Shown here in pieces: positions 2,662 to 50,736 of a DNA stretch of 64,000 bases. The first letter of the stretch is position 1, and each line of letters begins with the position of its first letter. A program made the position numbers and the translations under genes. Source of the stretch: Conexivisphaerales archaeon (GTDB taxonomy: Archaea; Thermoproteota; Nitrososphaeria; Conexivisphaerales; UBA164); assembly GCA_030756715.1 (NCBI GenBank), contig JAVBJD010000002.1, positions 4,085-68,084 on the forward strand. The letters run 5' to 3'. The notes beneath the pieces are model-generated. The model was given only the letters and a program-made list of their open reading frames with translations. It did not search any database and was not told where the DNA came from.

Positions 2662-3630
2662 ATGGTTACAAACTTAACAGAAGAAGCCAAGGCTATATGG
2701 TCAAAGGCTATAATGACCAGGGATCCAAGTGAGAAGCTTAGACTTTTACAGCTGTTTTTTTCAAAGATGCCTCATCATAAGGGAACAGAAAAGCTAGAAG
2801 TTTCGATAAAAAGGCAGATGGCTTCATTAAAAGAAGAAATAGCTGAAAGCAAGAAAAAGAAAGCTGTAAGGAAAGACGTATGGATAGTAAAGAAAGAAGG
2901 CATTTTAGCTGTGGTAGTTGACTTCAATTTTACAGATTCGTTTCACAGGCTCACCGGCGTAAATATGTCAAAGTATGAAGTGTTTTCAAGGCCCGTTGTG
3001 GCTCCTATAAAAGCTCTAGATGTAACGCTTCAGACATATTACGCTCCGATCGGCGCTGGAAATTTCAGAAATTTCCTCAAGTTAATAAAACAGGCTGATG
3101 TGCTCATCATTGCAGACAAAAGGGCCATCGAGCTGATCGAAAATGAAGGCATAGTGCTAGTAACGAACAAAAGGAGACTTGTTGAAATCAGCAGGATGCC
3201 GAGCGGCGGCATAAGGATAATAGGTAAATCAAAAAATATTAACGAAGAAGAGCTCAGGAAGTTTTTGAAGAGCTATGGGCTTGAGAACTGTGTTATAAAG
3301 CTTAGCGAAGACGCAACGCTTGACGACGTCGAAGATTACATATTCGGGAGGATGCAAAAAGTTTATGTTTTTCCAACATATGATAAAGAAAAAGACGTCA
3401 GAAACGTCCTCAACGCGCTTGGACTTATAAGGGTCTATACCTTGGATTCCTCTGGAGTTGTAGAAGGTCCGCCGCTTTTGGTAAATGAAAACAGCACTGC
3501 CCAGGATATTGCTAACAAGATAAGCATAAAGAACATGAGGTTTGCTTATCTTATCAGGGACAATATAAGGATAAAGGTAGGAAGCAACTTTGTCTTAAAA
3601 GACGGTGACAAAATAAGGATAGTGCCATAA
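2662..3630 (+). CDS. DRG/Rbg-like TGS-domain protein with degenerate GTPase motifs
   Basis: Archaeal DRG N-terminus (MPHHKGTEKL), S5D2L-like insert (SGGIRIIG..LKSYGL) and C-terminal TGS (IRVYT..GDKIRI) present; no GxxxxGKS, DxxG or NKxD. Confidence 0.75.
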   Translation: MVTNLTEEAKAIWSKAIMTRDPSEKLRLLQLFFSKMPHHKGTEKLEVSIKRQMASLKEEIAESKKKKAVRKDVWIVKKEGILAVVVDFNFTDSFHRLTGVNMSKYEVFSRPVVAPIKALDVTLQTYYAPIGAGNFRNFLKLIKQADVLIIADKRAIELIENEGIVLVTNKRRLVEISRMPSGGIRIIGKSKNINEEELRKFLKSYGLENCVIKLSEDATLDDVEDYIFGRMQKVYVFPTYDKEKDVRNVLNALGLIRVYTLDSSGVVEGPPLLVNENSTAQDIANKISIKNMRFAYLIRDNIRIKVGSNFVLKDGDKIRIVP

Positions 3631-3642
3631 GATGGTCTCCGC

Positions 3643-3873
3643 GTGAACTACCCCAATCCTGCGATTGGGACTTTGTTCAAAGGCACCCCTACAGTATGAG
3701 TGATACTGTTGAATTCAGAGACTCGTGGAAGAGGCGCGATCATCCTAGGGCGATTCACCTGGGTTCCACAGGAAAGCCGTCTCTAGCAAAAAATTACTTG
3801 CTGAAATGTTTAAAAAGTTTTATATTATTCATTCTTTCCCTCGCGGAAAGGGCTTTCCTCCCCATTTATCGCC
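3643..3873 (-). mobile_element. Non-autonomous IS200/IS605-family mini-element (omegaRNA/PATE-like), no ORF
   Basis: Minus strand ends ...cccaatcgcaggattggggtagttcac (RE-type hairpin + TTCAC); left-end hairpin ctttcc-ctcgc-ggaaag; TTGAT directly 5' of the left end; homologous to 50323-50543. Confidence 0.7.
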
Positions 3874-3879
3874 ATCAAG

Positions 3880-3900
3880 TTTAAGACTTTCAGTCTTAAA
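3880..3900. terminator. Perfect 9-bp hairpin, possibly a terminator downstream of dph2
   Basis: tttaagact-ttc-agtcttaaa, 30 nt past the dph2 stop. Confidence 0.3.
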
Positions 3901-5519: not shown

Positions 5520-6296
5520 TTAGTCAAGAAAAGCTATTGGAGGCATTCTTCTCTTGTGCTCGCTAGATCTCATTAGGCTTATAACTCTGGAAGCGCTTTC
5601 TCCATACTTTCTCATGATTTCTTCTTCTGAAACCTTAACGTCTATGAGTTCATGTAGAATTATGTCCGCAACCTCGTACGCGATACCGAGTTCGTCTTCT
5701 GCTGTCTGACCTGGCCAGAGCCTCGGGCTGCTCTTTTTGCCCGTAATTGTTTCAGGTATGTTAAAGTGAACCGCGAGTTCCCTTACTTCTGTTTTGTAGA
5801 CATCACCTATGGGCAGAATGTCCACACCGCCGTCCCCGTATTTGGTGAAGTAACCCAAGTATATTTCGCTTTTATCACCTGTTCCTATAACTATGGCATC
5901 ATTTATGTTTGCGAAATAATAAAGGATGCTCATGCGTATCCTTGCCTTCAGGTTCCCAAGCGCCTTTTTATCGATGACATCAAAGTTAGAAACATAGGAA
6001 CGCAAGATTCCATCGATGTACATTAGGCGGTAGTTTATGCCTAACCAAGACGCCAGCGTTAAAGCGTCCCTTATGTCTTCATATGGAGTTGATGATGATT
6101 CGGGCATTATTAGCCCCAGAACTTTTTCCTTTCCGAGCGAGGATACAGAAAAATATGCCGTAAGAGAAGAATCAATGCCTCCACTGAGCCCTATTACTGC
6201 TTTTTTATCTCCAACTTCTTTTTTTATGAAGCCTACTATTTTTTCTTTTACGTTATCGTAAGGCAACCCCCTTAAGCTTGTCTTTCCAAATAACAT
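5520..6296 (-). CDS. nadE: NH3-dependent NAD+ synthetase
   Basis: GLSGGIDSS, GNLKARIRM, GYFTKYGDG, SPRLWPGQTAEDELG. Confidence 0.95.
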   Translation of the reverse strand: MLFGKTSLRGLPYDNVKEKIVGFIKKEVGDKKAVIGLSGGIDSSLTAYFSVSSLGKEKVLGLIMPESSSTPYEDIRDALTLASWLGINYRLMYIDGILRSYVSNFDVIDKKALGNLKARIRMSILYYFANINDAIVIGTGDKSEIYLGYFTKYGDGGVDILPIGDVYKTEVRELAVHFNIPETITGKKSSPRLWPGQTAEDELGIAYEVADIILHELIDVKVSEEEIMRKYGESASRVISLMRSSEHKRRMPPIAFLD

Positions 6297-7067: not shown

Positions 7068-7952
7068 TTAACCCAGTAACCTTTCTACGACCCACGACGG
7101 CTTGAAAGGGGTCAGATCTTCATAACTTTGTCCTGTCCCGAGGTACATTATCGGTTTCTTAGTGTAGAACGCAAGATTTAGTATGGAGCCGCCTTTAACT
7201 TCTGCGTCTACCTTTGTAACTATCGAGTGAGAAAACCCGGGGTTCTGAAGGAAGGTCGTTGCTTGGTTTATCATGTCGTAACCTGCGAGAGCGTCACCTA
7301 CAAAGACGTTCAGGTCGGATTTTACTACGTTAACGAGCTTTGCGAGCTCGTTCAGTAGCGACTCATTCGTTTGCATCCTGCCTGCGGTATCTATTAAAAG
7401 TATTTCATAACTGTTGGCTTGAGCGTACTCATAAGCTTCCCTTGAGAGAGCTGCAGGATCAGCGCCGTATTTTTTTGAATAAACTTCAACCCCTATCCTT
7501 GAGCCATGTTCTGCGAGCTGTTCTATAGCACCTGTTCTGTAAGTGTCAGCGGCCACCATCAAGGGTTTGAGCTTCATTTTCTTCAAATAATATGCAACTT
7601 TTGCTACAGTGGTCGTTTTTCCGGTTCCGTTTATCCCTAGAAAAACTATCACAAAGGGTCTCCTCGGCGATCTGCCGTATATCTCAGGAAGCGTTTCTGA
7701 TTCTTGGAATATACCGGCTATAGTCTTTTCAAGAAGCTCTTTCAGTGTTTCGCTTTTTGTGCCGTTGACCTTTACGTTCTTTACCTCTTCGATAAGCTTT
7801 TGCTTAAAATATTCAATAACGTCGATTGAAACGTCAGCTTCTATAAAGTCTATTTCCCTTTCCTTAAAAAATTCTTCTATGTCCTTTTCGCTTATCTTTC
7901 CTGTAACGCTTGAAATAAAATCGGAGAATACTTTCTTTAACTTATCGAACAT
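7068..7952 (-). CDS. ftsY: Signal recognition particle docking protein FtsY
   Basis: GINGTGKTTT, DTYRTGA, DTAGRMQT, TKVD, GTGQSYEDL. Confidence 0.95.
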   Translation of the reverse strand: MFDKLKKVFSDFISSVTGKISEKDIEEFFKEREIDFIEADVSIDVIEYFKQKLIEEVKNVKVNGTKSETLKELLEKTIAGIFQESETLPEIYGRSPRRPFVIVFLGINGTGKTTTVAKVAYYLKKMKLKPLMVAADTYRTGAIEQLAEHGSRIGVEVYSKKYGADPAALSREAYEYAQANSYEILLIDTAGRMQTNESLLNELAKLVNVVKSDLNVFVGDALAGYDMINQATTFLQNPGFSHSIVTKVDAEVKGGSILNLAFYTKKPIMYLGTGQSYEDLTPFKPSWVVERLLG

Positions 7953-8376
7953 TTTGAGATCTTTTAAGCAGCTCGTTAAGCTCGTACCTGGCTTCTTCGA
8001 GCTTTTCTTCGACGGTTTTTTTATCCTGCTGCGCGCTGTTAAGTGCTTTTTCCAGCTCCTCTATCCTTTCTTTCAAAAAACTTATGGCTTCGTCCTTCTT
8101 TTTCACCATTACTACGCCTCCGCCAACTTTCAGCATTATCTTGCTTGTTGCGTCAGCTTTAGTTTTCAGCAGGACATCTCCGCCGAGCGGAACTACTATT
8201 TCAGATTCTTTCTCTTGCGGGAGTATTTCAATTGCCGCTTGAGCTGCCTTTGTTTCTTCTATAGCCTGCCCTATAAGGTAAATGCGCGAAATTATGCTTT
8301 CGTAATAATTTTCTAGAACCTGTATAGCGCTTGCGAGTTCGTTGATCCTATTTTCTACATCACTCTGGCTCTGCAA
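7942..8376 (-). CDS. pfdA: Prefoldin subunit alpha
   Basis: Coiled coils flanking a VVPLGG..VGGGV.V beta-hairpin region; directly upstream of ftsY. Confidence 0.92.
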   Translation of the reverse strand: MQSQSDVENRINELASAIQVLENYYESIISRIYLIGQAIEETKAAQAAIEILPQEKESEIVVPLGGDVLLKTKADATSKIMLKVGGGVVMVKKKDEAISFLKERIEELEKALNSAQQDKKTVEEKLEEARYELNELLKRSQNVR

Positions 8377-50278: not shown

Positions 50279-50322
50279 TTGTTTCCCTCATGCTTAAGTA
50301 CAAGTGCTTGTTATTAACCTTT

Positions 50323-50543
50323 GTGAACTACCCCCGCCTTTGCAGTTGGGGCTTCTGCTTCACTGGCAAGACTCTTGACCTGCGATCGTGGAAGTCTCAC
50401 CGTCCTCAAGCATACCGTCTGCGTTCCACGGGCAAAACCCTTTCGGACAAAAATACTATATCAACTTCATTTTATAAATTTGTCTATAATGGGCTATCCG
50501 CCTCCTCCCTCACGTAAAGGAGACTTTGCCTCCATTAATCCGC
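50323..50543 (-). mobile_element. Non-autonomous IS200/IS605-family mini-element (omegaRNA/PATE-like), no ORF
   Basis: Minus strand ends gaagcagaagccccaactgcaaaggcgggggtagttcac; left end gcggattaatggaggcaaagtctcctttacgtgagggag preceded by TTTAT; homologous to 3643-3873. Confidence 0.72.
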
Positions 50544-50736
50544 ATAAAGTTAAATTTATTTCAAAAACGATAAGAAAAATGGTAGAGCGATCAACGTTAG
50601 GTTTGATTATTGACCTTATTAATATAGAACCAAAGCCTCGCATTTTTCATTACTGACAGGTGTGCTATGCGTTTTTGGGGAAAGATTAAATAATAAGCCC
50701 GTCAATGTTTTCAAAAAGTTAAAAACTGAAGGCAAA

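Follow-up and report, generated by a model that had tools for sequence, protein, structure and literature searches.

In a stretch of 64,000 nucleotides from a Conexivisphaerales archaeon (contig JAVBJD010000002.1, positions 4,085 to 68,084; the window) we analysed a short intergenic element on the minus strand at 50323-50549, here called copy B, together with a second copy, A, at 3643-3879. Copy B is very probably a non-autonomous, protein-less deletion derivative of a TnpB-type IS200/IS605 element, of the kind known as palindrome-associated transposable element (PATE), that retains the end carrying the omega-RNA scaffold. Its predicted layout comprises a hairpin-bearing left end (LE), an AT-rich spacer of about 40 nt with a box resembling the transcription factor B recognition element (BRE) and TATA box of archaea, and the last ~126 nt of the parent, ending in GGGGTAGTTCAC; in full elements this retained part would overlap the 3' end of tnpB. 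The reading is carried by the match of the right end (RE) to a model of TnpB-linked ends, by the linkage of its end motif to TnpB genes and by the existence of empty sites, and in this respect the original prediction, which had proposed a TnpB-less IS200/IS605 derivative, is upheld.

Insertion of copy B and its target site

The boundaries of copy B could be fixed with natural empty sites. In the related locus L145, where the flanking 144-amino-acid (aa) protein is 95% identical and the DNA about 90% identical, the element is absent and the flanks are joined exactly at 50322|50550, the junction reading ...AAATAAATTTAA|AAAGGTTAATAACAAGCACTTG.... BLAST breakpoints against this empty allele delimit an insert of 227 nt between window positions 50322 and 50550, and a contig from an independent metagenome run (X5) has the identical joint. 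When the empty allele of L145 and X5 (...AAATTTAA|AAAGGTTAAT...) is set against the occupied one, zero duplicated bases are found. Copy B is also absent from the more distant relatives L146 and L148 (86%) and L151 (63%). These orthologous loci were reached through homologues of the 144-aa protein, whose gene lies on one side of the element, with a beta-CASP RNase gene on the other. The window contains archaeal housekeeping genes, and the same locus is found in Nitrososphaeria metagenome-assembled genomes (MAGs) and in hot-spring metagenomes. Copy B is an insertion 3' of TTTAA, without target duplication, in a hot-spring Nitrososphaeria lineage.

Since the L145 and X5 empty alleles break at 50322|50550, the element ends at 50549 and not at 50543. 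The lengths of 221 and 231 bp given originally have to be replaced by 227 nt for B, from the empty site, and 237 nt for A, by homology. Read from LE to RE on the minus strand, the complete mini-element is CTTTATGCGGATTAATGG...GGGGGTAGTTCAC; its ends, CTTTAT... and ...GTTCAC, are not inverted repeats. The 5' flanking target, and presumed target-adjacent motif (TAM), is TTTAA (50550-50554; ttaaa on the plus strand), as seen in the L145 empty site. The same pentamer flanks a related LE in a contig of X6 and copy 1 of locus L160, and copy A has TTAAA. TTTAA is the TAM reported for the Sulfolobus islandicus TnpB SisTnpB1 (10.1101/2023.03.06.531077).

The flanking pentamers TTTAT and TTGAT, from which a TTKAT TAM had been proposed, belong to the inserted DNA: TTTAT occupies positions 2-6 of B, TTGAT is likewise internal in A, and the related left end in X6 has CTATC in place of TTKAT. 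An ISDra2-like TTGAT TAM was rejected, as TTGAT is internal in A and the 5' flank there is TTAAA. Within the left end there is a motif that echoes the 5' flank (minus strand, 50530-50554 and 3862-3884): in B and the X6 copy the flank TTTAA goes with an internal (A/G)TTAAT, and in A the flank TTAAA goes with ATAAAT. This motif could be a DNA 'guide' for target reading by TnpA, two variants only being represented.

Two further observations concern this locus. In an 86% relative (L147:2727-3779, contig ERZ27246775) the spacer between the beta-CASP and 144-aa genes holds a gene for a 350-aa DDE_Tnp_1 (IS4/IS5-type) transposase; this gene is unrelated to B, and the spacer has therefore been struck independently by two unrelated mobile elements. 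In the Logan contigs of X1 (SRR6311224; L141:1 and L323:2927), short-read assemblies of this community break within ~30 nt of element B, L141 beginning 12 nt before the ATG of the 144-aa gene, and for an A-like copy the contig stops ~70 nt past its scaffold. Such contig ends at both elements are consistent with assembly breaks induced by repeats or polymorphism.

The right end, the presumed omega-RNA scaffold and the left end

The functional strand of copy B is the minus strand, on which its 3' end has the form GAAGCCCC-hairpin-GGGGTAGTTCAC. A scan of viral contigs with the terminal 12-mer plus TTGGG matched locus L004, where GAAGCCCC-hairpin-GGGGTAGTTCAC stands at the 3' end of a 446-aa open reading frame (ORF). 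This ORF is a TnpB, with Pfam OrfB_IS605 and Cas12f1-like TNB domains, and GTGAACTACCCC-hairpin-GGGGCTTC follows it directly. In a broader scan of viral contigs the right-end motif was found at 103 loci (76 unique), at least 34 of which have a TnpB-like ORF upstream on the same strand, as judged with one divergent query. A covariance model, R1, was built solely from 29 TnpB-linked right ends, and its best match in the 64-kb window is copy B at 50323-50380 on the minus strand (27.5 bits, E=5.7e-5, full model length). Because the model made from TnpB-linked ends ranks B first and the motif follows TnpB ORFs, we assign the right end of B to the tnpB-element type. The matched segment, UGAAGCAGAAGCCCC-loop-GGGGGUAGUUCAC, represents the right end or omega-RNA 3' module, and its last 6 nt, GTTCAC, are the transposon-encoded end motif. 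Across 54 distinct right-end hairpins, with 18 stem sequences, an average of 3.1 pairs extends beyond CCCC/GGGG, compared with 0.74 in shuffles. The right-end hairpin of the family thus covaries; none of the changes between strains in B is compensatory.

The minus-strand 126 nt at the right end of B (50323-50448; 57% GC, against 40% for the window and genome) and the corresponding 145 nt of A are presumed to represent the omega-RNA scaffold of a tnpB element. This assignment fits the published rule by which the scaffold covers the RE together with the tnpB 3' end, and the guide is the ~16-20 nt beyond the RE (PMC8612924). By the same rule the would-be guide of B is AAAGGTTAATAACAAGCACT (50303-50322, minus strand), directly 3' of the RE; this flank also holds the TATA-like TTAATAA of the downstream 144-aa gene, and the empty allele of L145 reads TTTAA followed by the identical 22 nt. 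Moreover, both copies keep a short remnant of the TnpB C-terminus in the frame of L004 (...LPVERRRYA* in B and ...FPVEPR* in A; the L004 TnpB tail is ...VPTVERSR), which ends in both at the same PVE motif.

Two further blocks lie within the scaffold. The first, CCCGUGGAACGCAG (50419-50432, minus strand), appears in the lettering of the original prediction as GTTCCACRGG and corresponds to the 'UGGAAC' loop of a second hairpin of TnpB-linked omega-RNAs, the stem of which is intact in A (CCUG/CAGG). The loop sits in covarying stems of L004, L206, L247, L193, L169, L164, L174 and L182, and is conserved at the RNA level, since L004 and L206 translate it in different frames. The second block, CUUCCACGA (50386-50394, minus strand; TCGTGGAAG on the plus strand), is a possible pairing partner of GUGGAA; it is conserved between A and B and, being invariant, gives no covariation.

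GC-rich islands in AT-rich genomes of thermophiles often mark stable RNAs, and we therefore considered that the segment might be a structured small RNA gene, or a conserved non-coding element unrelated to transposons, with the motif matches being coincidental. We regard this as exceedingly improbable. Rfam gave no credible match at A or B even at E<=10, only three tRNAs reaching the gathering score in the window, and the segment is absent from the orthologous sites in all relatives. The end motif is, in addition, that of a TnpB right end, and the empty sites together with this TnpB linkage effectively rule out a host small RNA gene. A coding ORF was also rejected, as the ORFs overlapping the two copies have no Pfam match.

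Upstream of the scaffold, copy B carries the BRE/TATA-like box AGACAAA-TTTATAAA (50471-50485, minus strand; TATA-like part 50471-50478), 22 nt before G50448, the apparent start of the GC-rich scaffold. The counterpart in A, ATAAAAC-TTTTTAAA, stands 21 nt before G3787 on the minus strand, and both boxes closely resemble the BRE/TATA of the three tRNA genes of the window (gacaaagTTAAAAAC and others). Transcription from this internal box is plausible. The AT-rich spacer between LE and scaffold measures 41 nt in B and 47 nt in A (15-17% GC). The two spacers are not detectably homologous (z=0.55) and a test for a shared deletion junction was not above chance, so that only the position of the box is common to the copies and not its sequence context. 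Of the promoter spacing that had been claimed as shared, the position 21-22 nt before the scaffold, like that in tRNA promoters, therefore holds, but homology of the spacer sequence does not. A run of 5-6 T stands directly before the first scaffold G in both copies (minus strand, 50449-50453 and 3788-3793). T-runs are termination signals in archaea; this one may end transcription that enters from the left end, or it may simply belong to the initiation region.

The left end of B (50490-50549, minus strand) is homologous to the LE of A and to those of mini-elements in L160 and L252, and offers two overlapping hairpin candidates, GGAG-GCAAAGU-CUCC at 50519-50533 and CUCCU-loop with CGUGAGG-AGGAG at 50502-50522, both on the minus strand. 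The second stem, which flanks a conserved CGYGAGG loop, differs in a compensatory manner between A (CTTTCC/GGAAAG), B (CTCCT/AGGAG) and L160 (CCATCC/GGATGG). Drawn from four LE sequences and non-significant DNA folds, the conservation of these hairpins is suggestive only.

Several results weigh against reading B as a TnpB-type derivative. Copy A fails model R1 (7.3 bits, E=8) despite its identical terminal 12-mer, and its GAAGCCCC has changed to AAAGUCCC. The 3' hairpin of B consists of CCCC/GGGG with no further pairs, the stem around its UGGAAC loop is degenerate (GCCCG/CAGAC, 3 of 5 pairs), and its LE and RE hairpins are alike only in a GCAAAG loop. Single-sequence folds of both strands, as RNA and as DNA, were no more stable than shuffles (z=-0.01 for the RNA of B). 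Searches of the 64-kb window and of ~150 kb of related loci with tblastn and a 27-sequence TnpB hidden Markov model turned up no tnpB; no tnpA is evident in the window, which was not scanned with a TnpA profile; and a full-length parent with a B-type LE was not recovered.

Scans of sequence collections with the exact RE and the internal motifs, which belong on the same side of the balance, gave chance matches only. For GTGAACTACCCC...TCGTGGAAG among genome contigs this was one match in a Planctomycetota MAG, and for RE, GTGGAA and TTCCAC among metagenome contigs two matches in high-GC coding DNA. More than 118 matches to TCGTGGAAG...GTTCCAC were obtained among viral contigs, none significantly similar to A or B by blastn, and blastn of B against plasmid and phage collections returned nothing meaningful. 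The viral scan with TGGAACGCAG...GAAGCCCC gave 70 matches, only L206, L213 and L227 being omega-RNA-like. The rest (L254-L320) are mostly one conserved ~125-nt sequence (GCCTGGATAGAGTGGAACGCAGGTTAGG...) found in dozens of IMG/VR contigs and unrelated to TnpB ends, presumably a conserved phage gene segment.

Copy A, related elements and divergence between strains

All of the motifs quoted by the original prediction as shared were found at their places in both copies. The terminal GTGAACTACCCC occurs at 50323 and 3643 and nowhere else in the window (0.15 occurrences expected with at most one mismatch), and in B, in plus-strand lettering, TCGTGGAAG lies at 50386-50394, GTTCCACGGG at 50423-50432 and CCCTCACGTAAAGG at 50507-50520. 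A comparison of A with B by blastn gave nothing beyond the terminal 12-mer. A global alignment has 160 identical columns (~68%) and scores 53.5, whereas dinucleotide shuffles give 7.4 +/- 2.8; none of 1000 shuffles reached the score (z about 16) and random window segments attained at most 20.5. With a score so far above the shuffles, A and B are truly, if distantly, homologous over their whole length.

Copy A (237 nt, 3643-3879, minus strand; 5' flank TTAAA at 3880-3884) sits between a DRG-like GTPase gene and the Dph2 gene (dph2), whose ends converge on it. It is absent from every relative examined, being replaced by a 6-nt spacer in L158 and by unrelated fillers in L154-L157 and L323; a contig of X5 has 58 nt at this site instead of 290. 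A precise empty site was sought among these relatives (no spacer of use in L158, unrelated fillers in the others) and in L321/L322, which have other synteny. None being available, the left boundary of A, like its length, rests on homology to B. The filler in the 85%-related L156:3755-3980 and L157:3567-3793 is another 226-nt sequence that has two hairpins, TTCTTCTGC...GCAGAAGAA and CGTGAACCGCGTGCTTCACG. A strain with a DRG-like protein 98% identical switches to the filler allele from about window position 3565, inside the gene (L323:2912-2927), and the A locus therefore varies by block replacement and not by simple excision.

The two copies consist of the same parts in the same order and have nearly equal lengths (in B and A respectively, scaffold 126 and 145 nt, spacer 41 and 47 nt, LE 60 and 45 nt). 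This argues against the idea that B arrived as a full-length tnpB element whose core was deleted in place, the layout common to A and B then resulting from independent truncations, and the ending of both C-terminal remnants at the same PVE motif argues in the same direction. Moreover, a full-length element is present at neither site in any strain or relative examined, and in contigs of related copies the assembly stops ~70 nt past the scaffold, as expected when a short repeated LE comes next. Nevertheless, the missing homology between the central spacers means that a shared junction is not demonstrable, L160 has differently truncated relatives in which the LE is fused directly to the 3' module, and repeat-mediated loss of the core in place is documented for archaeal IS605-type elements (PMC3119063). 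On balance we consider deletion in place unlikely, and B may have arrived as a mini-element.

Further members of the family were sought in viral and metagenomic sequences. A scan of viral contigs with the LE pattern matched only L160 and L252. L160 (IMG/VR 3300005977; also L252) is a 39%-GC 'viral' contig with two ~100-nt mini-elements, each having a B-type LE fused directly to the 3' module; they share the LE sequence TTAAKGG...CGTGAGG...GGATAGCC with the copies described here and, unlike A and B, have neither the AT-rich spacer nor the 5' portion of the scaffold. A third right-end-like hairpin of this contig ends in GGGGTAGTTTAC and carries the left-end motif CGTGAGG in its loop. These features lie at 5562-5668, 7380-7438 and 8141-8262, and none of the ORFs of L160 of at least 120 aa matches the window.

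Short matches to parts of A and B (38-82 nt, 85-93% identical) were also found in other sequence contexts of the same metagenomes. A 4273-nt contig of X1 and a 183-nt contig of X4 match A at 3695-3776 (~93% over 82 nt), a second X4 contig matches A at 3732-3772, a 3520-nt X1 contig matches B at 50359-50405 and an X6 contig of 3309 nt, in which 2.8 kb follow the LE inward, matches the left end of B. These matches suggest further family members. The grouping of B with A in one family, as claimed originally, is thus supported by their homology (z=16), by the ~100-nt relatives of L160 and by the short matches in the same metagenomes. The element is too short for a protein, occurs in two copies in the window, and both copies are missing from related strains.

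Strains carrying copy B allowed its rate of change to be compared with that of the surroundings. Locus L138 differs from the window at 26 of 20,435 nt, with 3 of these differences inside the 227-nt element, one in the terminal 12-mer. L139 and L140 (98.1% identical to the window) differ at 330 of 17,345 nt, and 13 differences (5.7%) fall in the element, to be compared with 4.1% at third codon positions, 2.9% in other intergenic DNA and 0.5-0.7% at codon positions 1+2 of the locus. The strains compared encode an identical 144-aa protein and yet differ within the element. Five of the 13 changes (50334, 50393, 50429, 50430 and 50516) fall within the blocks that A and B have in common, without any being compensatory; in L139/L140 both halves of the candidate GUGGAA pairing are changed (50393 and 50429/50430). 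These figures, from a small sample of 13 substitutions, indicate that B evolves at about the neutral rate, and they give no hint that an RNA is under selection at present.

The blocks that A and B share are the parts conserved in all tnpB-linked right ends, and for this reason we explain them by descent from functional parents. The earlier conclusion that they reflect selection on an RNA rather than neutral decay is not supported by the strain data. As no purifying selection is visible at present, copy B, most likely, is idle or in decay and is not being maintained as an RNA gene.

A different view of the same blocks is that B is an active omega-RNA-only hitchhiker with its own promoter, using TnpB from elsewhere, and that A and B are under ongoing selection for the RNA. 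The box 21-22 nt before the GC-rich scaffold in both copies, like the promoters of the host tRNAs, fits with this view; B of the window strain retains the family consensus in every block that is mutated in the other strains; the guide and its TTTAA target are intact as an empty allele in a co-occurring relative; and such a role has been proposed for PATEs by Meers et al. (PMC10055086). However, the rate of substitution between strains equals or exceeds the neutral proxy, with the uncompensated block changes described above and the L138 change inside the terminal 12-mer. Each copy is, in addition, degenerate in part (in B the stem of the UGGAAC loop and the short 3' hairpin, in A the altered AAAGUCCC), the box-bearing spacers are not homologous, and TnpB is found neither in the window nor in the related loci. 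We consider this view improbable and retain the reading of B as a derivative that is now idle.

The ATG of the 144-aa gene comes 44 nt downstream of copy B, gene and element share one orientation, B abuts the TATA-like TTAATAA of that gene, and no T-run terminator follows the RE. These features may suggest that the host has co-opted B as a regulatory element, either as a promoter or source of read-through for the 144-aa gene or as a guide for a nuclease-dead TnpB-like regulator. This seems very improbable, because close relatives have the same gene arrangement without the element, which moreover evolves neutrally. For copy A, set between two genes that converge on it, such a role is impossible, and there is no TnpB-like gene nearby.

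Proposed mechanism and comparison with known systems

For a protein-less derivative such as copy B, we propose that a Y1 TnpA acting in trans would excise the element and insert it as single-stranded DNA 3' of TTTAA. The internal box, if active, would give rise to an omega-RNA with the guide AAAGGTTAATAACAAGCACT taken from the adjacent flank. Such an RNA, with a TnpB provided in trans, would recognise TTTAA followed by AAAGGTTAATAACAAGCACT, which is the empty allele of L145 (and, at its TTTAA junction, of X5), and a cut of the empty allele would promote re-copying, so that the element would be restored or spread. A model in which omega-RNAs of PATEs act with TnpB in trans was put forward by Meers et al. 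(PMC10055086). The neutral drift and the weakened hairpins make it doubtful that B still performs TnpB-guided re-copying. We may further speculate, as a quite unlikely extension, that these mini-elements are self-promoted, TnpB-less guide-RNA 'hitchhikers' with their own archaeal promoter, homing between strains through a borrowed TnpB that cuts TTTAA plus the 20-nt flank.

Elements of this kind are already known, as PATEs in archaea and as omega-RNA-bearing PATEs in Geobacillus. What is new here is an example from thermophilic Nitrososphaeria of protein-less IS200/IS605 derivatives that retain the guide-RNA end. Its value lies in the negative result on current selection and in an unusually clean empty allele from nature, by which the boundaries are fixed and TTTAA is indicated as target and TAM. 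If a cognate TnpB is present in the community, B gives a scaffold, a TAM and a natural target with which the use of omega-RNA in trans could be tested in archaea. For annotation, an intergenic GC-rich island in a genome of this sort may be the end of a transposon and not a host RNA gene, and conservation of motifs between two copies is not to be read as selection on those copies.

PATEs were first described in Haloquadratum walsbyi as protein-less derivatives of IS605/IS1341-type elements, and one of them, HqIRS71, retains part of the TnpB C-terminal coding region (PMC3119063). Copy B resembles them in its protein-less size, in the absence of terminal inverted repeats and of target duplication, in having candidate hairpins near both ends, in its strain-specific presence and in being a tnpB derivative that lost the core and kept a remnant of C-terminal codons. 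Unlike them, it has a thermophilic Nitrososphaeria host, a TTTAA target and, just before the scaffold, a BRE/TATA-like box; the likeness described here is one of layout.

In Geobacillus stearothermophilus, PATE-like minimal insertion sequence elements encode omega-RNA (Meers et al. 2023, PMC10055086). As in copy B, an LE and an RE with omega-RNA are present without tnpA and tnpB, both presumed to be needed in trans, and the target or TAM stands at the LE and the end motif at the RE. The Geobacillus elements differ in their bacterial host and in that cognate TnpA, TnpB and omega-RNA expression have been shown there, whereas B is known from its sequence alone.

The guide RNAs of ISDra2 of Deinococcus radiodurans (PMC8612924) and of SisTnpB1 consist of an RE scaffold of ~130-150 nt and ~16-20 nt of flank, as predicted for B. 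In both systems the TAM is identical to the target of TnpA on the 5' side of the LE, and the TTTAA flank of B is the TAM of SisTnpB1. Unlike these systems, no TnpB gene was found here, and the ISDra2 TAM, TTGAT, occurs only inside the LE of A. Finally, the tnpB-linked ends of IMG/VR contigs (L004, L206, L218 and others) share with B the terminal 12-mer and the GAAGCCCC-hairpin module, and L004 and L206 also the UGGAAC loop; L004 and similar loci, unlike B, encode TnpB.

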